58,126 bases of DNA from a virus (IMGVR_UViG_3300001847_000530:1-58126), one strand, 5' to 3'. Counted from the stretch's first letter, positions 3,932 to 54,287 are shown. Translations and numbers: made by a program. The notes: generated by a model not told the origin, from the sequence alone.

Positions 3932-5164
3932 ATGGCCAAAAAGAAAATTACTTACGCATCTATCGTACCGCTAATCGGCGGCGAAAACTTGGGAATCCAT
4001 CAGGCACTTGACGGGCAACTACCAGAGTATGTTCTGTCTTACACGCCTTTTCAGCATAACGACAAGCACTACATTTCCTATCTGCGCGATCAGAAGAAGT
4101 GGAAGGGCGACTACGTTTTCTTGGACGAGAAGCCAGACTACAAAGCTAAGCACGTGAACGCTGTCAATGCAGTATGCCCGTGTGCTGGTCTGTCCTCGCT
4201 CTCGCATCAGTCAAGTTCTGATTCCGCGATCAACAAGTGGATGTACGAATCCGCCGAGTATGTCCTGAAGAACATTAAGCCCGATGTCTTCTGGGGTGAA
4301 AATGCTCCGCGTCTTTCGACTGAAAAGGGCCGCCCTGTTGCTGACAAGCTTTATCAGATCGGCCGCGAGAATGGCTACTCTATGACGCTGTACTACACGG
4401 AATCGCGTCTGCATGGCCTGTCACAGAAGCGCCCGCGCACCTTTTACTTCCTGATGAAGGGCGACAAGGCTCCGATTCTGAACCGTTTCTTCCGCGAGCC
4501 GGAGCCGATTGAAGCAATCCTTGAGCAGCCTGCTATTCCGAACGATCCGATGGATGTTCTGATCAATGACGATGATCCGATGGATTGTGGCTTCCTGCAG
4601 TACTGCATGGCAATGGAAGGCACAAAGACTCTAAAGCAGTTCTACAAGAAGATCAATCAATCGACTGTGGTGGTTCGTTCTGCTATCGATGAGTACTCAA
4701 AGCGCAATCCTGAAGAGGTCATCAAATGGATGGTCGAGAACAAGGTTCAGGATAAGTACATTCGCCGCGCTCAGGGAATTAAGGGCAAGCTTGATCAGGG
4801 ACTGGGATACTGGGCGCATGGCAACACTGTGCTGAAGGGCGTGATTCCAGCTTTTGTCTCGATGATTCCGTTTTGTGCTATCAATGCTCAGAAAGGTCGA
4901 TTCCTGACAGTGCGTGAAGCGCTGCGCATTATGAAGATGCCAGATGACTTTGTTCTAGCTAATGAGGATCCGCTTGCTGATGTCAACCACATCTGCCAGA
5001 ATGTTCCTGTCACTACTGCTGCTGATATGGCCGCAGAGGTCAATCGAATGATTCGCGGCGAGATCGAACTAGCTAGTTCTGCCTTCATCCGTCAATCCAA
5101 CAAGAACGGCGAGATCAATTATCTCGAGGAAGCGCCTAAAGCTACTATCGAATCCTTTTTGTGA
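3932..5164 (+). CDS. C5-cytosine DNA methyltransferase-like protein
   Basis: Catalytic PC (CPCAGLS), ENAP, QKRPR and RFLTVREA motifs; motif I is atypical (PLIGG). Confidence 0.75.
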   Translation: MAKKKITYASIVPLIGGENLGIHQALDGQLPEYVLSYTPFQHNDKHYISYLRDQKKWKGDYVFLDEKPDYKAKHVNAVNAVCPCAGLSSLSHQSSSDSAINKWMYESAEYVLKNIKPDVFWGENAPRLSTEKGRPVADKLYQIGRENGYSMTLYYTESRLHGLSQKRPRTFYFLMKGDKAPILNRFFREPEPIEAILEQPAIPNDPMDVLINDDDPMDCGFLQYCMAMEGTKTLKQFYKKINQSTVVVRSAIDEYSKRNPEEVIKWMVENKVQDKYIRRAQGIKGKLDQGLGYWAHGNTVLKGVIPAFVSMIPFCAINAQKGRFLTVREALRIMKMPDDFVLANEDPLADVNHICQNVPVTTAADMAAEVNRMIRGEIELASSAFIRQSNKNGEINYLEEAPKATIESFL

Positions 5165-33329: not shown

Positions 33330-33414
33330 GCCGTAGTGGCTCAGCGGCAACAGCACTGGTTTTGTAAACCAGCGGGGTAACCCTACATCGGTTCGAGTCC
33401 GATCTACGGCTCCA
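33330..33414 (+). tRNA. tRNA-Thr(UGU) with long variable arm
   Basis: GCCGTAG/CTACGGC acceptor, CTGGT-TTTGTAA-ACCAG anticodon arm, TTCGA, CCA. Confidence 0.8.
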
Positions 33415-33419
33415 CTTAA

Positions 33420-33508
33420 GGAAGGGTGGCAGAGCGGTTTAACGTGCTTGTCTTGAAAACAAGAGTGGCTAATCCCCACCGTGAGTTCGAATCTCACCCC
33501 TTCCGCCA
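33420..33508 (+). tRNA. tRNA-Ser(UGA)
   Basis: CTTGT-CTTGAAA-ACAAG, long V-arm, G73, CCA. Confidence 0.92.
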
Positions 33509-33573
33509 TTTACTAACCTAATCATTGGCTCCAATGTGCGTTTGGGCACTGAAATGCCAGTGGAAATTTTTTA

Positions 33574-33649
33574 GGGCCATTAGCTCATTTGGCAGAGCGC
33601 CTGATTTGCATTCAGGAGGTGAACGGTTCGACCCCGTTATGGTCCACCA
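33574..33649 (+). tRNA. tRNA-Ala(UGC)
   Basis: G3:U70, CCTGA-TTTGCAT-TCAGG, CCA. Confidence 0.92.
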
Positions 33650-33653
33650 ATTT

Positions 33654-33728
33654 GCACGGGAAGTCAAACGGTCAGACACCAGTTTGCAAAACTGCTATTA
33701 GCGAGTTCAACTCTCGCACCGTGCTCCA
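33654..33728 (+). tRNA. tRNA-Cys(GCA)
   Basis: CAGT-TTGCAAA-ACTG, U73, CCA; one acceptor mismatch. Confidence 0.8.
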
Positions 33729-33733
33729 TTTTC

Positions 33734-33809
33734 GCGGTAGTAGCTCAATTGGCAGAGCGCCATCCTTCCAAGCTGGATGTTGCAGGTTCGAGCCCTGTCT
33801 GCCGCACCA
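33734..33809 (+). tRNA. tRNA-Gly(UCC)
   Basis: CTTCCAA loop, TTCGA, CCA. Confidence 0.9.
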
Positions 33810-33815
33810 ACTTTC

Positions 33816-33971
33816 TGGTCGAAAGACTGGAAATGGTGGAGGGTGTGAATCCTTCACTCCCCTAGAGAGAAACAGTCAATCTCTTTAAATCGACTGCCGA
33901 ACCGAAGCGCGTGCCTTCGGTGTATGTCACGGGCGCAGACGAACAGTGAGGCTTGCATATCCTCGGCGCCA
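33816..33971 (+). ncRNA. Unclassified structured RNA ending in GCCA
   Basis: GGTCGA/TCGACT, GACTG/CAGTC, CCGAAG/CTTCGG and GAGG/CCTC stems. Confidence 0.5.
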
Positions 33972-34016
33972 CTAATTTTGAACCTGAAAAAGTTGTAGCG
34001 CATAAATACTTGTACT

Positions 34017-34526
34017 ATGTCATTTTCTAACGAACAGGTTTTTTGCGTCAATAGCACCTATGCGCGTCATCTCATTAAGAAGCGCTTAATAGTTCAGAAG
34101 CTAATTCCATACGAGTGTTGCGAATGTAAGAATAGCGGTGAATGGAATACTAAGCCATTAGTTCTTCAGTTAGATCATAGCAATGGAATTAACAACGATA
34201 ATCGTTTAGAAAATCTTAGATTTATTTGCCCAAACTGCCATTCTCAGACTGAAACGTATGCTGGAAAAAATAGCGCTGGTGTTAGACATCGCAAGATAAA
34301 ACCTAATTTTAGAGCAGAAAAAAGAAAAAGAGATAAAGATTTACTAGAAAAGATAAAAGCAGATCCATCGATTAGATTTGGCGAATGGGGATGGAAAACA
34401 CGATTTGCTGAAAAGCTTAGCATTTCGCCCCAGAAAGTCGAAAAATGGATTGCTAGAGTAGATCACGATTTTTACATCACGGTAGCTCAATTTGGTAGAG
34501 CTGCGGCCTCCAAATCCGCAGGTTAA
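34017..34526 (+). CDS. HNH homing-type endonuclease inserted in tRNA array
   Basis: C..C, LQLDH.NG...DNRLENLRFICPNCH; AT-rich; stop lies inside tRNA-Trp. Confidence 0.85.
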   Translation: MSFSNEQVFCVNSTYARHLIKKRLIVQKLIPYECCECKNSGEWNTKPLVLQLDHSNGINNDNRLENLRFICPNCHSQTETYAGKNSAGVRHRKIKPNFRAEKRKRDKDLLEKIKADPSIRFGEWGWKTRFAEKLSISPQKVEKWIARVDHDFYITVAQFGRAAASKSAG

Positions 34527-34552
34527 AGGTTCAAGTCCTTTCCGTGATGCCA
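34476..34552 (+). tRNA. tRNA-Trp(CCA)
   Basis: ATCACGG/CCGTGAT, CTCCAAA loop, G73, CCA. Confidence 0.88.
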
Positions 34553-34560
34553 CTTTATGT

Positions 34561-34687
34561 AGGGATGCTGGTACCAGAAGGCGAGATGCTGCGCGCGCGA
34601 GGCAGTCAAAGCCGATGGTTTGAAGTTGTGCCTAGTGAGTGGCGTACCACTCTAGAGTTGCAGGTTAGAGTCCTGCCGTCCCTGCCA
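34561..34687 (+). ncRNA. 127-nt tRNA mimic with acceptor and T arms but no canonical D or anticodon arm
   Basis: AGGGATG/CGTCCCT-GCCA; GCAGG-TTAGAGT-CCTGC; two long internal hairpins. Confidence 0.65.
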
Positions 34688-34692
34688 AATTT

Positions 34693-34767
34693 GCCGCCAT
34701 CGTCTAACGGTTAGGACAAATCCCTTTCACGGATGCAATCGGGGTTCAATTCCCCGTGGTGGTACCA
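34693..34767 (+). tRNA. tRNA-Glu(UUC)
   Basis: CTTTCAC loop, CCA. Confidence 0.88.
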
Positions 34768-34785
34768 CTATACATATTTTGTCAA

Positions 34786-34863
34786 CGGCGCGTAGCACAG
34801 TCTGGCTAGTGCGCTACATTTGGGATGTAGAAGTCGCAGGTTCAAATCCTGCCGCGCCGACCA
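34786..34863 (+). tRNA. tRNA-Pro(UGG)
   Basis: C1:G72, CTACA-TTTGGGA-TGTAG, CCA. Confidence 0.92.
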
Positions 34864-34864
34864 T

Positions 34865-34939
34865 TGACTCATGGTGTAATGGTCAGCACAGCTGACTTTG
34901 ACTCAGCTAGTTGGGGTTCGAGTCCCTGTGAGTCAGCCA
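34865..34939 (+). tRNA. tRNA-Gln(UUG)
   Basis: U1:A72, GCTGA-CTTTGAC-TCAGC, CCA. Confidence 0.92.
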
Positions 34940-34942
34940 CCC

Positions 34943-35019
34943 GTCCTCGTAGCTCAACCGGATAGAGCACCGGTTTTCTAAACCGGTGGTTGTGGGTTCG
35001 ATCCCCGCCGAGGGCGCCA
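34943..35019 (+). tRNA. tRNA-Arg(UCU)
   Basis: CCGGT-TTTCTAA-ACCGG, CCA. Confidence 0.92.
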
Positions 35020-35028
35020 TTATACTTT

Positions 35029-35229
35029 ATGAAAAAGTTACTTATATTGTCAGCGATTGTATTGCTTTTAGGCGGATGTATTTCTATCTGCGAAGATCAT
35101 CCTGCAGTTAGAATATACCGTTCTTATCAGCCGCAGTATATTCATCACGAAGTTGTTCCGATCCGCACTCCTCAGTACATCGGATATCGTGATCGGTTTG
35201 GTACGCTACATCTGTGGCCGGCACAGTAA
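35029..35229 (+). CDS. Small lipoprotein
   Basis: LGGC lipobox. Confidence 0.6.
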   Translation: MKKLLILSAIVLLLGGCISICEDHPAVRIYRSYQPQYIHHEVVPIRTPQYIGYRDRFGTLHLWPAQ

Positions 35230-35231
35230 TC

Positions 35232-35312
35232 GCCCTAGTGTTGAAATGGCAGACAAGACAGTCTTAGAAGCTGTTGCCTCATGGCGTGCAGGTTCAAGTC
35301 CTGCCTAGGGCA
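35232..35312 (+). tRNA. tRNA-Leu(UAG), no encoded CCA
   Basis: GCCCTAG/CTAGGGC, CTTAGAA loop, V-arm. Confidence 0.88.
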
Positions 35313-35313
35313 C

Positions 35314-35745
35314 TTATTTTTTTGCTCGGAAGATTTCTATTACTTCTCCGATGATGTTCTGTTGAGTAACATACTCGATGTCTGCAGCAAGATTGTTGTC
35401 TCCTTTTGCCACATAACCTTCTTTATATTTCCGCACCAATCGATGCGTCACTGCTACTGCTACGTTATTGCTTTTATATGCTACAATTTTTCCTAGAAGA
35501 TCATTCTCAGAGAATGTTTTAGGCATAACGATCAAGTAATCGTCAGTTTTGATAATGGGTAACATAGATCCATAACCAATACAATGAAACACTAATCCTT
35601 TTACTTTAAATGATTCTGTGCAAGCCAGTAGTTCAATCTGTGCTGGATTGCAATATACTATTGGCGGATTTATTGGTCGATAATTGCTGACGCAGCTGCT
35701 TAATGGAAAAATTATTAACAGCAAAAGCAGCATTAATCTTTTCAT
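35314..35745 (-). CDS. S26 signal-peptidase-like lipoprotein (Ser-His type)
   Basis: LSSC lipobox; GSMLP, VTHRLV, KGDNN..D. Confidence 0.8.
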   Translation of the reverse strand: MKRLMLLLLLIIFPLSSCVSNYRPINPPIVYCNPAQIELLACTESFKVKGLVFHCIGYGSMLPIIKTDDYLIVMPKTFSENDLLGKIVAYKSNNVAVAVTHRLVRKYKEGYVAKGDNNLAADIEYVTQQNIIGEVIEIFRAKK

Positions 35746-35764
35746 TTATCTAGCTATTTATTTT

Positions 35765-36136
35765 GGGCGCGTTCTGGATTCTACTTAAATGTGGCCTTCT
35801 GGGAAGCAAGCATGGATACTACGATCCATTCAACATCGTGGAAAAACACAAACGGCATTTCTAATATGCTCAAGAGCCTCTTCGCTGTCAATCAGCAGGA
35901 AGCTCAACTCGCAGCCTAAGCAGCTGTGAATGAAGTCGACGCGATACTCGCTGATGTCGACTTCATCATCTAGCGAGTCTGCTTGTTCGGTTGGTGACGT
36001 TGCGAACAAGCAGTACTCAATGTCACGTACTTCATCGTTCTGCGCAGAGTTCGATGTCGCATTACCTGCGATAAGCTTGTAGAAACTTAGCGGAAAATAC
36101 TTAAGCACAGGGGTTCGACTCCCCTCGCGTCCACCA
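35765..36136 (+). ncRNA. ssrA: tmRNA; tag ORF 35854-35919 GISNMLKSLFAVNQQEAQLAA
   Basis: GGGCGCG/CGCGTCC-ACCA with G3:U70, GGATTC, T-arm GGTTCGACTCC, tag ending LAA. Confidence 0.92.
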
Positions 36137-36215
36137 ATTTCTTCTCGGTGACAGTATCCGAGAGAACAACCGAAGCCCTCACACGGCAGAAGTTCCTAAC
36201 AAGAAAGACAACACA

Positions 36216-36404
36216 ATGTACGCATCCATCACGGTTGCATACCTTGCGATTGCCGGTCTGTTGAAACTCGCACACGAGGACTACAGCAAACTGGCCAAGC
36301 GCTCGCCAGAGCGTGGAAGCAGTAAGGTAAAGCGTGTTATGTCCAAAGTTGGATCCGAGGCTAAGAAAGCTTGGATCTCAATGGGGCAATACCCGCTTCA
36401 GTAA
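36216..36404 (+). CDS. Small hypothetical protein
   Basis: Hydrophobic N-terminus; followed by terminator-like hairpin. Confidence 0.45.
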   Translation: MYASITVAYLAIAGLLKLAHEDYSKLAKRSPERGSSKVKRVMSKVGSEAKKAWISMGQYPLQ

Positions 36405-36412
36405 GCAAACAC

Positions 36413-36450
36413 AACTCTGCCATGCTTGTGGTGGCAGAGTTCCTTTTGTT
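36413..36450 (+). terminator. Rho-independent terminator
   Basis: AACTCTGCCA/TGGCAGAGTT stem then CCTTTT. Confidence 0.6.
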
Positions 36451-36519
36451 CTAAATTTTTCCATTTTCCTGTTTACACGGACCCGCCGCCGTGTATTGTT
36501 CTATATGTTCTTTTGATAA

Positions 36520-36775
36520 CAACATTTTTGTGACGGAATAAACCATTCTAATGGGGTTAACGTATGCACCACGTGAAGAACGTGGTGCAGTTTCCGAATC
36601 GATTAGTAAGTAAGGTACTATGCTGAGGCTTAGGTTGGCCAACCGAAGCTACCAGAGGTATGGCTCGTAAGCTTGAATATAGAATGACAAGCGAGTCATT
36701 ACGGTGCGGCGGCATCAATTGTCTGAATAACAGAAACTCGAAGCTGGAATGGAGGTAATCATTAATCCTCCCAAT
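36520..36775 (+). ncRNA. Candidate structured RNA A
   Basis: After TTTACA/TATTGT promoter and boxA-like TGTTCTTT; TGCACCACGT/ACGTGGTGCA stem; terminal GGAGG/CCTCC-CA. Confidence 0.45.
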
Positions 36776-36788
36776 TTATTTTCATCAT

Positions 36789-36855
36789 ACTCGACTAGGC
36801 GAGTCTAAACAGAAGTATAGGCCTAGTGCGGCGGTACAGAAATGTGCCGCGACTT
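36789..36855 (+). ncRNA. Pistol-ribozyme-like RNA
   Basis: P1 ACTCG/CGAGT; loop ACTAGG pairs with CCTAGT; TAAACAG; P2 AAGT/ACTT; GCG; P3 with GAAA loop. Confidence 0.75.
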
Positions 36856-37006
36856 GCCACGCCTTGGTTCCGCTGTGCACCGGATTAAATTCTGATTAAA
36901 ATCCAGTTACCAAGAAAAATAAGTACGAGACAAAGGCTGCGGTTTCAATAGCAGAAACGCCGCATATAAATCTCGTTGCTCAAGCTATGAGTTAGCGTGG
37001 CACCCA
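36855..37006 (+). ncRNA. Candidate structured RNA B
   Basis: TGCCACGC/GCGTGGCA closing stem; CTTGG/CCAAG, ACGAGA/TCTCGT and TGCGG/CCGCA arms. Confidence 0.55.
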
Positions 37007-37028
37007 ATTTTGTTCTTTACATTAGAAT

Positions 37029-37252
37029 TTCTTGGTGTGGCCTTTAACCAGCAAATGCGCTGTTAGCGGTCGTATTCATCGAAGTCAGCAACATCAGAAT
37101 AGCAGGACAGCTATGATGCCAAGTGGCTAATTACGACGGATGGTATGCGAAACCCGGATGTTAAGACCCGCTGTTAACTAAAATGGTCTCATCCAGTGAC
37201 AGTAATGTCTAGCAGAGCCCAGGACAACATCGATGAGCAGCCACATCAAGAA
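37029..37252 (+). ncRNA. Candidate structured RNA C
   Basis: 13-bp closing stem TTCTTGGTGTGGC/GCCACATCAAGAA; preceded by boxA-like TGTTCTTTAC. Confidence 0.55.
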
Positions 37253-37253
37253 T

Positions 37254-37437
37254 GTAGACGACACGTGGAAATACACCTCATCAGCATGAAGATGGGGAAG
37301 CTTCCTCTCGGTCTGAACCTCGCGCGGTAGAAAGATTCCGCGGCGTTTGCTAGCAAATGATGCGTACTATCGACAAATGATGGCGAGTACCCGCAATACG
37401 AGGCTCTGGAAGTTCGCAAAGACCGTTCCACATCTAC
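37254..37437 (+). ncRNA. Candidate structured RNA D
   Basis: Nested GTAGA/TCTAC, GTGGAA/TTCCAC, CGGTCT/AGACCG and CCTCG/CGAGG stems. Confidence 0.55.
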
Positions 37438-37459
37438 CTGATCTATAGATACAAACGTT

Positions 37460-38968
37460 ATGACAAAACAAACCAACAAACAAACCGCACGCAGATTGCT
37501 CTCTAGCATTCTGCTTTCTGTGTTTACAGCTACTGCTCTAGCATTACCTAGCACAGATCCTACTAACCTGCAAACCTCGGCCGGCGTGACCGTTCTGCAA
37601 GCAACGAATGCGCTGACGATCACTGCACCAAACCGTGCTGTCCTGAACTGGACAAACTTCGGATCCGGAACGGACACGATTTCGCGAAGTGACTTGCTGA
37701 CATATCAGCTGCCTGATGCAAAGTCATCAGTACTAAATATCGTCACTGGTTCTGCACAATCGATGATCGATGGATATATTTCCTCAAATGGAAAAGTTTA
37801 TATCATCAATCCTAACGGCATTGTCATCGGAGCAAATTCGCGCTTTGATGTGGCCTCGCTAGCACTATCTGCTAGCGATAATCCAGTAGCTGCTCAGCTG
37901 CAATACCTGCGTGATGGTACTGTTCCATCCGAGGTTGGAATTCGGAGCGCATTTGGCTCGCTGACAGTCAATAGCTCAGCAATGATTCTAAGCCCAAACA
38001 TCACGCTTCTTGCCAAGAATGTATATGTCGGTGCTGCGATGTTCGGTGGTGCAACCACAATCAATGCTGACGGAGATGTCCAGCTTGGTGTGCAAGGCGG
38101 CTCGACGGTCTTCGGAGGTCTGACAATCACCAATGCCAGCGGAAATACAGTGCTGAGCATGGCAGGATCGACAGTCAATTCAACTGGTCCAATCGTTGCA
38201 ACCAGTGATCGTGGTAATGTTCTCAGTCAGGCAGGATCGCGCCTTGTGACTAAGAATCTAACTGTTACCTCGAATTACGGTGCTGTCAATCTTGGTGCTG
38301 ACGGTGCTCTGATTACAACCGCAACCGCTCCAACAGTCACGATTGCTCTTGATGGTCTGACACCTAATCCATCAGTTGGTGGATCTTCGACTGGCGCATT
38401 TGCTGTGACATCACCCGCATCTTTCAAGGTTGATGGAGTTACTGGTGTCAGCAATTCGCCATTCAGCTTTACGTCTGGCGGAGATCTTACACTGGGTGCT
38501 GTTCACCTTGATGTGACCAGTGCAACGACGTTTGCAGGAAAGACAGTCACAGATACCACAAACGGAATCTTCGTTTACGGCCCAGTGCTGTTTTCTGCTA
38601 CTGGTGGAGATATTTCAATCACCAAAGGCAATCATAGCTTTGGTCCTGTCAGCGTATTTGCCAACGGAAATGCGACAGTTTATGAAGCTGCTGCTCTCAA
38701 TTTGAATACTGTCAATGTCAAGAATCTTGTGCTGAAAACAGGAGAATACTTTTTTCAGACACCGACAACAGCAAGTCTCTTAGCCAATTCTTTCAATTTG
38801 ACTGCCTCAGGTGCCGTTTCATTGTTTACTGGAAACATCGCCTCGGGTCTTACGATCAGTGCCGGTTCATCAAGTGTAGATCTGAGCAGACTCAGTATTG
38901 CCACGAATTTGAACGGCATCGCACCAACAGTGACAACGACCGGTGCTGTTGGACAACCTAATCCTTAA
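37460..38968 (+). CDS. Secreted filamentous-haemagglutinin (TPS) N-terminal-domain beta-helix protein
   Basis: Signal peptide; A.LNW..F, VLN.V.G...S.IDG, NG.VYIINPNGI. Confidence 0.85.
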   Translation: MTKQTNKQTARRLLSSILLSVFTATALALPSTDPTNLQTSAGVTVLQATNALTITAPNRAVLNWTNFGSGTDTISRSDLLTYQLPDAKSSVLNIVTGSAQSMIDGYISSNGKVYIINPNGIVIGANSRFDVASLALSASDNPVAAQLQYLRDGTVPSEVGIRSAFGSLTVNSSAMILSPNITLLAKNVYVGAAMFGGATTINADGDVQLGVQGGSTVFGGLTITNASGNTVLSMAGSTVNSTGPIVATSDRGNVLSQAGSRLVTKNLTVTSNYGAVNLGADGALITTATAPTVTIALDGLTPNPSVGGSSTGAFAVTSPASFKVDGVTGVSNSPFSFTSGGDLTLGAVHLDVTSATTFAGKTVTDTTNGIFVYGPVLFSATGGDISITKGNHSFGPVSVFANGNATVYEAAALNLNTVNVKNLVLKTGEYFFQTPTTASLLANSFNLTASGAVSLFTGNIASGLTISAGSSSVDLSRLSIATNLNGIAPTVTTTGAVGQPNP

Positions 38969-51087: not shown

Positions 51088-52230
51088 ATGAATAGTAAAG
51101 CCGCTATTGCGATCATAGCCATGGCGGCTTTTTTGTCTGCGCACGGAGCGGTGGGTAAGATGGATACTGTCACTGGCCCAACTCAGATCGCGCGCGGCAA
51201 GGAGAAGATCGAAGGCAAGAAAGATACAGATGTCGAGATGAATGACTCTGTCGAGACGCTGAAAGCGCGTGTCGGTATTACCTTTGAGGACAACACGAAG
51301 ATGCAGGTGACAGAATTCTCAAAGCTCAAGATCGATGAATTCGTGTACGATCCCAAGTCAGGTAAAGGTAGTCTTTCTATCAAAGCAGCATTTGGCACAG
51401 TTCGGTATGCATCAGGAGCAATCGCAAAGAATAGCCGCGAGAACGTCAAGGTGCAGACACCGACAGCAAAGGTATCAGTACGCGGCACAGACTTCTCGAT
51501 GACTGTCTCGGAGGATGGCAAAAGCTTGATCGTGCTACTGCCATCGATTCCAAAAGCATCAGGTTTGCCACCGGTTGTCGGTGAGATTACTGTCTCAAAT
51601 CTGGGCGGTTCTGTGCTCATGAATCAGGCATATCAGGCCACATTTGTATCCTCGCAGAACACAGCACCCACACCACCCGTGGTACTCGACTTTCAGGACG
51701 AATCTAAGATCAATAATATGCTGATCGTGGAAACACCGCGTCAGGTTACTCAGGCAGTCAAAGAACAAAAGAAAGAAAAGCAACAAACACAAAGCACCGA
51801 TGATGAAGACAATAAGCCCAAAAAGAAAGACACAAAGACTGCAATTACTCAATCTGATACGCCGCCGGCTACTGCAACAGTGGCTGCACAACAAGCAACA
51901 ACGACTGACAATACTCAGCCAGTGACCACAGATCTGAACATCAATGCTATTCAGCCGCAGGTGCTACAGAATGTAGCAACCGTAATTGAAAAGGCTCAGC
52001 CGCCAGCTCCTCCACCAAATTTGGTTGTTGGTACTGCTGTAGTCAATACTGGGTGGGCATCTGATGGCACGAATGCCACACTGCTGATAGACAATAATGG
52101 CAATGTGGTGCAGTATTCGACAAAGGCGAACGCCAATCTCTTGATAGATATTACGACAGATGAAGGCACTAAATCATACCCGCTGAATTTCGGTGATAAA
52201 CTAAAGGTGAACATCACGCAAAAGAAATAA
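51088..52230 (+). CDS. Exported FecR-domain protein
   Basis: F.D.T...V.E.S.L.ID, V.TPTA..SVRGTDF. Confidence 0.85.
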   Translation: MNSKAAIAIIAMAAFLSAHGAVGKMDTVTGPTQIARGKEKIEGKKDTDVEMNDSVETLKARVGITFEDNTKMQVTEFSKLKIDEFVYDPKSGKGSLSIKAAFGTVRYASGAIAKNSRENVKVQTPTAKVSVRGTDFSMTVSEDGKSLIVLLPSIPKASGLPPVVGEITVSNLGGSVLMNQAYQATFVSSQNTAPTPPVVLDFQDESKINNMLIVETPRQVTQAVKEQKKEKQQTQSTDDEDNKPKKKDTKTAITQSDTPPATATVAAQQATTTDNTQPVTTDLNINAIQPQVLQNVATVIEKAQPPAPPPNLVVGTAVVNTGWASDGTNATLLIDNNGNVVQYSTKANANLLIDITTDEGTKSYPLNFGDKLKVNITQKK

Positions 52231-54287
52231 TGAAGAAGCATCAAATCAAGATCATCGGTATCGGACTAATCATGCTGGCAGTAGCTGTTGCGCTGCGTAT
52301 CTGGGATCCATATCCGATCGAGGTGCTGCGTCTCAAAGGATTAGACTTTTATCAGCGTCAGCAACAGAAAGAAGTATCCAAGAACATTGCTGTCATTGAG
52401 ATCGATGAGGCTGCTCTCGAAAAGAATGGTCAGTGGCCCTGGCGCCGTGATGTGCTGGGTGCTGCTGTCAGCAAGGCGATGGACGCTGGTGCAAGTGCAG
52501 TGGTGCTACCTATCATCTTTGCAGAGCCTGATCGTCTGGGCGGTGATAAGGAATTCATTCAGGTGATCGAGAAGGTACCCGTAATCATTGCTCAATCTGC
52601 TGCTCAGAAAGGCAAAGGCGAGCCAGTGCCGCGCGGGTTAGCAACAATTGGCGGAAAGGCAGAAGACTGGCTGTTCGATTATCCAGCGGCAATAGGACCA
52701 ACTAGTGACATTGGTAAATCGGCTGCAGGCGTGGGCATGCTGCTGACTGCTCCTGAGCTTGATGGGGTGGTGCGTCGTTTACCGCTGATCGTGCAAGTCA
52801 AAGGCGAGAAGTATCCCACATTGCCTCTGGAGGTGCTACGCGTCTTTGGTGGAGAGGCATCCAATCAGGCCAAGGCGAATGAGGGAGGCATCGTTGCTGT
52901 GCGCGTTGCTGGAATTCCGCCGATCAGGACAGATGCAAATGCTCGCGTCTGGCTGAATATGAAGTACACCTTTGAGAGCATCTCTTACACAAAGAATGAT
53001 TGGAGTGCTGTCAAAGGAAAGATCGCAGTCATCGCGCCAACAGCAGAAGGTCTGGCCAATACTGTAGCGACACCTCTGGGTACCACATATGGATACGAGG
53101 TCAATCTGCAAGCACTGCAGATGCTGATCGATGATGCGCGTCTGGAACGCCCAGCGGAAGCTGATCTGTACGAGCTTGCAGCTGGTGTGCTGCTGTGTCT
53201 GATTGCAATCGTGACAATCTGTTACCTGAACTACATCGCTGCGGGTATCCTGTTCGTGATTATGCTAGTCGCACCAGTTCAAACTGGATTTTACCTGTTC
53301 GCGAAGCATCAATCACTCTACGATTTTACCTGGGTGTGCGGCGCGCTGATCGGATCCTGGGGTGCAGCATTGTTCTGGCGGTTCGTGATGGAATTCAAAC
53401 TGAAGCAGCAGATCAAGAAGCAATTTGGTACATACCTTTCGCCTGCCATGGTTGAAAAACTGCAACAGAATCCTGACCTACTCAAACTTGGCGGCGATGA
53501 AAGAGAACTTTCCATTATGTTCACAGATGTTCGTGGCTTCACCGCCATATCAGAACACTATGGTAAGAATGTTCAAGGGCTGACGCAGATCATGAATCGC
53601 TACATGACTGCAATGACTCAGGCGATTCTTGACAACAATGGAACGCTTGACAAATATATCGGTGATGCTCAGATGGCATTTTGGAATGCTCCACTTGATG
53701 ACAAAGAACATGCCAAGAACGCTGTGAAGACCGCGATGAAAATGTTGAAGGACTTGGATGCATTCAATGCCGAAATAACCAAAGAAGGCGTACCAGCATT
53801 TGGTATGGGGCTTGGCATCAACACAGCAACGGTTGTTGTTGGTAATATGGGCAGCACACAAAGATTTGACTATACCTGTCTTGGAGACGGAGTAAATCTG
53901 GCATCAAGACTTGAAGGTCAAAGCAAGCCATATGGCGTAAGAATTGTCCTTGGTCAAGACACAGCAAGATATGTGCAACGCGATTATCAACTGTTTGAAT
54001 TGGACAAGATTGCTGTCAAAGGAAAGAAAGAAGGAGTAAGAATATTCACTGCGCTTGAAAATGAACTTGGTGTCGCAAAAGCACACGTCTTGGTATCTCA
54101 CCAAATGTTCCTGAATGGTTACAGAGAAAAAAATTGGGATAACGCCATTTATCACGCAAAGGAACTTATGAAATACAACAAGGAACTAAAAAAGTATTAC
54201 GAGATGATGATCGAGCGCATCGAGTACCTCCGTGACAATGACCCAGGCGAAAAGTGGGATGGCGTCTACAGAGCGACCAGCAAGTAA
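52230..54287 (+). CDS. CHASE2-domain class III adenylate cyclase
   Basis: IDE..L...GQWPW.R, DGVVRR; TM helices; FTDVRGFT, KYIGDA, GD.VNLASRLE. Confidence 0.92.
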   Translation: MKKHQIKIIGIGLIMLAVAVALRIWDPYPIEVLRLKGLDFYQRQQQKEVSKNIAVIEIDEAALEKNGQWPWRRDVLGAAVSKAMDAGASAVVLPIIFAEPDRLGGDKEFIQVIEKVPVIIAQSAAQKGKGEPVPRGLATIGGKAEDWLFDYPAAIGPTSDIGKSAAGVGMLLTAPELDGVVRRLPLIVQVKGEKYPTLPLEVLRVFGGEASNQAKANEGGIVAVRVAGIPPIRTDANARVWLNMKYTFESISYTKNDWSAVKGKIAVIAPTAEGLANTVATPLGTTYGYEVNLQALQMLIDDARLERPAEADLYELAAGVLLCLIAIVTICYLNYIAAGILFVIMLVAPVQTGFYLFAKHQSLYDFTWVCGALIGSWGAALFWRFVMEFKLKQQIKKQFGTYLSPAMVEKLQQNPDLLKLGGDERELSIMFTDVRGFTAISEHYGKNVQGLTQIMNRYMTAMTQAILDNNGTLDKYIGDAQMAFWNAPLDDKEHAKNAVKTAMKMLKDLDAFNAEITKEGVPAFGMGLGINTATVVVGNMGSTQRFDYTCLGDGVNLASRLEGQSKPYGVRIVLGQDTARYVQRDYQLFELDKIAVKGKKEGVRIFTALENELGVAKAHVLVSHQMFLNGYREKNWDNAIYHAKELMKYNKELKKYYEMMIERIEYLRDNDPGEKWDGVYRATSK

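Follow-up and report, generated by a model that had tools for sequence, protein, structure and literature searches.

The DNA analysed here is an IMG/VR virus contig of 58,126 nucleotides that is estimated to be 33% complete; the whole stretch is referred to below as the window. Its DnaB-like helicase is 60–63% identical to those of T4-like Synechococcus phages (Kyanoviridae), and other genes, among them those for ribonucleotide reductase, an ATP-dependent DNA ligase and a ClpP-like protease, are in keeping with a large lytic phage. DNA runs containing the stretch are labelled aquatic or freshwater metagenomes. The contig also encodes a 685-aa sensor cyclase (52230–54287), with a CHASE2 sensor domain and an adenylate/guanylate cyclase domain (PHROG 35576, E = 2e-204).

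Organization of the non-coding RNA cluster

A pistol ribozyme sits in a 4-kb non-coding RNA cluster in which all of the elements are on the + strand. It is followed by a structured RNA designated RNA B. The cluster contains the following features.

33330–35313, + strand: array of 10 tRNA genes (ARAGORN; Rfam tRNA matches)
35765–36136, + strand: phage tmRNA (Rfam RF00023, 84.5 bits; ARAGORN tag peptide ending in QLAA; RNA-library contigs)
36413–36451, + strand: terminator-like hairpin (36413–36441) with a T-rich tail, predicted by consensus scan to end the upstream unit
36472–36499, + strand: sigma-70-type promoter-like site, TTTACA, 16-nt spacer, TATTGT (consensus scan)
36506–36781, + strand: manA-like structured RNA of 276 nt, ending 7 nt before the pistol (RF01745, 32.5 bits, below the cut-off)
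36780–36788, + strand: 9-nt leader UUUCAUCAU, directly before P1 of the pistol; columns 3–9 are invariant in all six distinct sequences
36789–36856, + strand: pistol self-cleaving ribozyme (Rfam RF02679, 52.1 bits; core conservation and P3 covariation in relatives)
36852–37006, + strand: RNA B, a four-helix RNA of cloverleaf topology (model R1, 74.9 bits; covariation; no Rfam family)
37003–37018, + strand: 3' tail of the cassette, CC and a U-rich stretch ending in GUUCUUU, kept in all variants regardless of what follows
37046–37424, + strand: RNA C, conserved and non-coding, located after tRNA-Met in relatives; no Rfam match

The tmRNA gene comes directly after the tRNA array and is conserved in relatives. 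The tRNA array of one relative, L002, includes a tRNA with a four-base anticodon (cctg) at 1343–1419, as predicted by ARAGORN. The consensus scan found 2 terminator-like sites where 1.4 were expected, a weak signal alone, and low-depth RNA contigs of X7 and X16 that stop before or at 36450 give a weak hint for a terminator. Promoter-like sites taken alone were no better than chance (4 found, 3.7 expected). In L002, L003 and L005, TTTACA and the first three bases (TAT) of the second hexamer occur unchanged at the same place.

The RNA at 36506–36781 resembles the manA motif (RF01745; Weinberg et al. 2010, PMC2864571), which is known from T4-like cyanophages, to which this phage is closest. The alignment reaches both ends of the model and includes the GUGAC-GAAUAAAC segment as well as the GGAGGUAAUCAUUAAUCCUCC hairpin on the 3' side. 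The RNA differs from the motif in its score (32.5 bits versus a gathering score of 55.2; E = 3e-6 in a 1.5-kb search), in a 109-nt insertion and in preceding RNA genes rather than a protein gene. As the score lies below the gathering cut-off, we call this RNA manA-like only. Counterparts that are 76–78% identical, also preceding RNA genes, are found in L002 (4480–4746), L003 (2111–2431; 28.6 bits) and L008 (4996–5258), and RNAalifold analysis of four sequences gave 67 pairs, 20 of them with compensatory changes. The order in L008 is manA-like RNA, tRNA-Met within 2 nt, and then tmRNA.

RNA C is more conserved than anything else nearby. Its segment 37051–37241 is 88–91% identical in L002, L003, L005 and L020 and 70% identical in L010, and RNAalifold yielded 40 pairs, 11 with compensatory changes. 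Evidence from RNA consisted of assembled contigs of four metatranscriptome runs from one study over 35700–37500, with coverage that excludes 36451–36895. Contigs of the four runs cover RNA C from about 37052 to 37422, where word depth was the highest in the stretch. Past RNA C lies a 502-aa ORF (37460–38968) with a Pfam TPS secretion domain (PF05860, E = 2.8e-13), which is unusual for a phage. This ORF had no PHROG match, and a pattern search of IMG/VR contigs returned no relatives of it.

A full-length pistol ribozyme at 36789–36856

Rfam cmscan of the whole window identified 36789–36856 (+ strand) as a match to Pistol (RF02679) over model positions 1–68 of 68. The score was 52.1 bits, against a gathering score of 34.5 bits, with E = 1.2e-6 for the whole window and 3.1e-8 for the same alignment in a 1.5-kb search. 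All of the conserved core positions are aligned, and this segment is an above-threshold, full-length member of the pistol family. A genome-wide search with RF02679 found this single pistol in the 58,126-base record, and 14 control genomes contained no match (0/14). No ORF of at least 40 aa overlaps the pistol on either strand.

An earlier note on this DNA, drawn from the sequence alone, had described a pistol-like element at 36789–36855 and had suggested a search with the Rfam pistol model. That search gave a significant score above the gathering cut-off, so the label was correct and even understated. The start of the element stands, while its 3' end lies one base further, at 36856. P1, the 6-bp pseudoknot, the linker, P2, the GCG and P3 were all present where the note had placed them, both in the sequence and in the model alignment.

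36789–36793 with 36800–36804, + strand: P1, 5 bp
36794–36799 (loop, ACUAGG) with 36822–36827 (CCUAGU), + strand: pseudoknot, 6 bp with perfect complementarity
36805–36811, + strand: linker CUAAACA, with UAAA at 36806–36809
36812–36815 (5' strand, GAAG) and 36853–36856 (3' strand, CUUG), + strand: P2
UAGG segment ending in G36820 and G36821, + strand
36828–36830, + strand: GCG triplet
36831–36838 with 36843–36850, + strand: P3, 8 bp closed by a GAAA loop

The pseudoknot pairing is perfect even though the RF02679 model does not score it. Read directly against the family consensus, it carries a two-sided change, from U to A in the loop and from A to U in the partner strand. One conserved linker position deviates, with C replacing the consensus A at 36805. 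P2 consists of three Watson–Crick pairs (36813–36815 with 36853–36855) and a G36812/G36856 mismatch.

Catalytic core, junction and predicted cleavage site

In published accounts, the pistol class is defined by three stems together with a 6-bp pseudoknot and ten nucleotides of high conservation (PMC4604425, PMC6154101, PMC7027511). The same accounts describe position 32 as a purine, G33 as the residue that binds the catalytic Mg2+ and as the partner of C41, G40 as the general base, and G42 as another conserved residue. In the window, G36820 is the equivalent of purine 32, G36821 of G33, and G36828-C36829-G36830 of G40-C41-G42, with the residue roles taken from PMC6154101 and PMC7027511. The G36821–C36829 pair is included in the structure of the Rfam model.

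Cleavage of pistols is placed by PMC4604425 inside the 2-nt P3–P2 junction, the length of which is described there as strictly conserved, whereas its GU identity is modestly conserved and varies in nature. By the model alignment, the junction in the window is also 2 nt, G36851-A36852, but it is GA rather than the consensus GU. This sequence falls within the natural variation reported in PMC4604425. The GA junction and the reduction of P2 to three Watson–Crick pairs plus a G/G mismatch are the departures of the structure from the consensus. Full-text literature searches yielded no published cleavage rate for a GA-junction pistol.

The earlier note had left the junction as either G or GA. In the 1-nt version U36816 would pair with A36852. 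Position 36816 changes from U to A in relatives without compensation, and this one-sided change suggests that the base is unpaired. The 1-nt junction was therefore rejected and the 2-nt GA junction retained.

Between G36851 and A36852, + strand: predicted scissile bond, by homology with cleavage at the 2-nt P3–P2 junction of pistols (PMC4604425)

A cut at this bond would be expected to give the upstream product a 2',3'-cyclic phosphate end and RNA B a 5'-OH.

Conservation of the ribozyme in related phages

The DNA ligase gene was used as a handle to collect 28 IMG/VR loci, 16 of which were scanned with Rfam. A pistol above the cut-off was present in five of these 16 loci (L002, L003, L005, L006 and L020), positioned 700–850 nt after the tmRNA, where the locus reaches that far, and 165–190 nt before tRNA-Met. 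The scan found tmRNA and no pistol in L008 and L010. Sequence patterns provided further copies. The exact pattern for the 5' half of the pistol occurred in five IMG/VR contigs. The pattern for the closing stem of RNA B gave 73 IMG/VR matches, of which six were true RNA B copies, and the pattern for its 3' half gave 24 matches in metagenome contigs, of which 11 were true copies. The remaining matches (67/73 and 13/24) were chance occurrences in GC-rich coding DNA and were discarded on inspection. The combined set comprises six distinct pistol–RNA B sequences and one copy cut by a contig end.

The same 5'-half pattern was found in no contig (0) of a bacterial and archaeal genome collection, which thus gave no prophage or host lead, and blastn of 36400–37500 against GenBank phages gave no match. 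Five cultured cyanophage relatives (S-CREM1, S-H38, S-SRM01, S-SCSM2R and S-SCSM1) lacked a pistol (0/5). For S-CREM1, the published annotation (PMC9964418) lists manA, wcaG, glnA and abiF RNAs and no ribozyme.

The ribozyme is nearly invariant among the six distinct sequences. Outside P3, only two of 48 positions vary (36810, C/U; 36816, U/A), whereas the manA-like RNA beside the pistol is merely 76–78% identical across the same genomes. P3 occurs in three forms, all of them paired: 8 bp with a GAAA loop in the window, 7 bp in the L005 type, and 9 bp with an extra hairpin in the L002 type. Its third pair changes from G-C to A-U among the six sequences. The strands of the pseudoknot and of P2 are invariant in relatives, and hence neither helix has covariation support within this clade. 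The leader UUUCAUCAU is kept as well, although the DNA farther upstream differs. The L002-type pistols score only 36.9–38 bits because the Rfam alignment stops at 4969, within the extended P3; alignment with the window places the true 3' end at 4993, and these copies are complete.

We take this pattern of conservation, as read from the aligned sequences, as evidence for selection on the ribozyme. The pistol might instead be an inactive or barely active relic, with its GA junction and 3-bp P2, that persists only through recent spread of the cassette. Both the junction and the P2 G/G mismatch are off consensus and all copies are closely related, which speaks for this reading. However, every catalytic-core position is kept, P3 has been remodelled three times and is still paired, and the other positions are nearly fixed beside a manA-like RNA that has diverged. 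Moreover, junction identity varies in nature according to PMC4604425, and a second pistol of the same phage group, described below, scores 60.5 bits and has a GA junction too. We regard decay of the ribozyme as quite unlikely.

RNA B is a conserved structured RNA

RNA B is about 150 nt long and consists of an 8-bp closing helix (36855–36862 with 36995–37002) and three arms. A covariance model, R1, was built from four relatives with the window excluded. R1 found the RNA B of the window at full length, 36852–37006, with 74.9 bits and E = 1e-16. In an alignment of six sequences 97.9% of the cells were paired, and 18 of 40 pairs had compensatory changes; these values are to be read with the caveats that the alignment was fitted to the model and that the sequences are related. 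None of 500 shuffles matched the observed values (0/500), and sliding the partner strand dropped pairing to 24–45%. The single-sequence fold had z = -2.87. The closing helix is invariant, and the other six helices vary. From these results we conclude that RNA B is a real structured RNA. The closing stem that the earlier note had mentioned for RNA B is thus borne out as real and conserved by the R1 match and the covariation analysis.

No Rfam family matched RNA B at E ≤ 1. R1 searches of 23 more distant loci returned nothing convincing. Neither the more distant ligase-linked loci L007–L029 nor L127 gave a match, apart from one in L025 with E = 0.15 that was treated as noise. Two assignments were considered and rejected. 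The cloverleaf topology and an N-C-C after the closing helix are tRNA-like, but ARAGORN and the Rfam tRNA and tmRNA models made no call, and the P4 loop is not T-loop-like. The GAAUAAAC segment that RNA B has in common with the manA-like RNA raised the idea of a second manA-like domain, which had no model support.

One RNA-library contig spans 36896–37405 and bridges the 3' half of RNA B into RNA C, so the 3' end of RNA B may be part of a longer molecule. No contig began at 36852, which lies within the stretch 36451–36895 without contigs. The contig ends found at 36896, 36916 and 36997 were rejected as RNA ends; they carry adapter sequence and are fragment ends.

The pistol and RNA B form a constant unit

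All RNA B copies, the six distinct sequences as well as the one cut by a contig end, are preceded by a pistol with an identical junction. Two of the three sequence searches were keyed on RNA B alone, yet the pistol precedes every copy. The neighbours of the pair differ. Upstream, the manA-like RNA is directly adjacent in the window, the manA-like RNA and an additional stem-closed RNA of about 160 nt are found in L002 and L003, and unrelated sequence is found in L005. Downstream, the cassette is followed by tRNA-Met in L002–L005, by other sequence in L107 and L120, and directly by RNA C in the window. The manA-like RNA of L008 leads straight to tRNA-Met in a 140-kb record that contains neither pistol nor RNA B. 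The varied neighbours, together with a manA-like RNA that occurs without the cassette, indicate that the pistol travels with RNA B rather than with the upstream RNA. As the flanks differ and the pair is constant, the conserved unit extends from about 36780 to 37018 and comprises the 9-nt leader, the pistol, RNA B, and the CC with its U-rich tail, the leader and the tail being single-stranded. All RNA B cassettes belong to one narrow clade with an almost identical core, so some of the constancy of the fusion may be due to recent shared ancestry and not to selection.

The RNA of about 160 nt lies at approximately 4750–4900 in L002, between the manA-like RNA and the pistol, with equivalents in L003 and L005; the window lacks it. 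Its closing stem is formed by ACCCUCUC and GAGAGGGU in L002 and by a different complementary pair in L005.

The register between ribozyme and RNA B is tight. The predicted cut lies 3 nt (ACU) before the closing helix of RNA B. U36855 and G36856 are common to the 3' strand of P2 and the closing helix, and G36856, which is mismatched in P2, pairs with C37001 in RNA B.

This arrangement bears on whether the pistol mainly serves the upstream RNA, as a 3'-end maker and cap that would give the manA-like RNA (in relatives, RNA X) a structured ribozyme tail and a 2',3'-cyclic phosphate, or acts as generic punctuation between multiple RNAs. By the topology of pistols the whole ribozyme would stay on the upstream piece after cleavage, and in the window it begins 7 nt past the manA-like match. 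The tRNA that directly follows the manA-like RNA in L008 would give that RNA a processed 3' end, and processing of polycistronic transcripts is among the roles suggested for bacterial ribozymes in PMC6765202. On the other hand, the upstream partner varies between genomes (manA-like RNA, RNA X, or unrelated sequence in L005), whereas RNA B is the downstream partner in 6/6 distinct sequences with an identical junction. The 3' strand of P2 also overlaps the closing helix of RNA B, and overlaps nothing upstream. An upstream or punctuation role consequently appears unlikely.

Alternatively, the ribozyme could cut within the 5' leader of the mRNA for the downstream 502-aa ORF and so control this gene through mRNA stability or translation. 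One RNA-library contig runs from 37056 into this ORF, and the non-coding stretch may thus share a transcript with it. However, 600 nt lie between the predicted cut and the start of the ORF, and in relatives tRNA-Met separates the cassette from what follows. Furthermore, the ORF has no IMG/VR relatives while the pistol–RNA B cassette is conserved, indicating that the two are not linked across genomes. We consider control of the ORF highly improbable.

A second pistol cassette with the same register

A related phage record of 165 kb contains a different pistol elsewhere, with a score of 60.5 bits, in which the pseudoknot, P2 and P3 all differ from those of the window.

L127 1336–1569, - strand: second pistol and RNA D, also in L135, L136, L138 and L141

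The 5' half of this pistol occurs in seven IMG/VR stretches; L137 and L140 match in the 5' half alone and continue differently. In five distinct contigs the pistol is followed by RNA D, which is conserved, about 165 nt long and closed by a helix of 6 bp (GGGCGC/GCGCCC). The junction is again GA, and the closing helix of RNA D begins with the last 2 nt of the P2 3' strand. Support for the RNA D fold is weak (covariation in 3/29 pairs; single-sequence z = -0.58). The second cassette is thus a hint, not proof, that this register is a design feature.

A proposed role for the pistol in RNA B maturation

The earlier note had read the locus as a ribozyme that matures the downstream RNA. Comparison of the sequences favours that reading, through the constant fusion, the varied neighbours and the second pistol in the same register. 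Taking the locus as a whole, the best explanation is probably that the pistol acts within the primary transcript and cuts free the 5' end of RNA B.

According to this model, the transcript would most likely start near 36472–36499 and run through the manA-like RNA, the pistol and RNA B and onward. With P1, the pseudoknot, P3 and the short P2 in place, G36828 (the G40 equivalent) would activate the 2'-OH of G36851, and Mg2+ bound at G36821 (the G33 equivalent) would assist the leaving group. The chain would then break between G36851 and A36852. The upstream RNA would retain the entire ribozyme and gain the 2',3'-cyclic phosphate end, and RNA B would be released with a 5'-OH and only three nucleotides (ACU) ahead of the 8-bp helix that closes it. 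After about 140 nt more had been transcribed, the other strand of that helix would be available, and the helix should then strip the weak 3-bp P2 or stack on it, freeing the product. Displacement of P2 or stacking on it would favour product release, and P2 may itself be extended by stacking on the RNA B closing helix. If RNA B is released as proposed, the ribozyme would be a built-in, protein-independent 5'-end maker for this RNA, and the 5'-OH end might bring a benefit. Elsewhere in the cluster, boundaries are marked by tRNAs, the substrates of RNase P and RNase Z. In this phage cluster of tRNAs, tmRNA, manA-like RNA, RNA B and RNA C, the two kinds of boundary, ribozyme and tRNA, appear to be interchangeable.

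A broader and more speculative possibility is that the pistols of large aquatic phages are the ribozyme part of a portable RNA gene of the 'ribozyme plus cargo' type. In such a gene the last helix of the ribozyme would be short and have two bases in common with the cargo helix, folding of the cargo would make the cut irreversible, and the outcome would be a stable 5'-OH RNA made without RNase P or any other protein. Two unrelated cassettes of this phage lineage, with RNA B and RNA D, have the GA junction and the register in common, and the arrangement could therefore be a design rule of general validity and represent what pistols do in nature. The manA-like RNA could be a ligand-sensing gate for the production of these RNAs. 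We offer this idea tentatively.

Comparison with known systems

The element in the window has the P1, 6-bp pseudoknot, AAA linker, purine-32/G33 and G40-C41-G42 of the pistol class as described by Harris et al. (2015; RF02679; PMC4604425). It also has the variable P3 and the 2-nt P3–P2 junction, and like many pistols it resides in a phage genome. It differs in having GA instead of GU and in a short P2 that runs straight into the closing helix of the downstream RNA. The host also differs: instead of Firmicutes or their phages, it is a Kyanoviridae-like myovirus from freshwater.

The earlier note had compared the arrangement with theta ribozymes, which process tRNAs. Theta ribozymes are described in PMC10879173 as HDV-like and lie beside phage tRNAs. 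The analogy of role holds: in both cases a small self-cleaving ribozyme is found among clustered non-coding RNAs of a phage, positioned so that cleavage would set one end of an adjacent stable RNA. Membership of the class does not, since theta ribozymes are HDV-like (PMC10879173) and their cargo is a tRNA, as opposed to the unassigned RNA B. An Rfam search of 36100–37600 at E ≤ 1 gave no match to the HDV family, which is characterized by a double-pseudoknot fold.

A further parallel is provided by phage T4. Its stable RNAs C and D are small RNAs of unassigned function within the tRNA region of a T4-like phage. By this description they resemble RNA B as small RNAs in a tRNA-cluster setting. The T4 RNAs are not known to be processed by a ribozyme.

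Outside the Weinberg 2015 discovery paper and supplements, full-text literature searches turned up no paper in which a pistol heads a non-coding RNA of a phage. The chemistry of pistols is well understood, but PMC6765202 describes what self-cleaving ribozymes do in bacteria and phages as undefined. The locus makes pistol function testable: in a transcript of about 230 nt, cleavage at the predicted site would be expected to liberate a conserved, structured RNA whose 5' end is defined. It also adds a natural variant with a GA junction and a short P2 to the pistol class, and a freshwater cyanophage-like lineage to the known pistol hosts.
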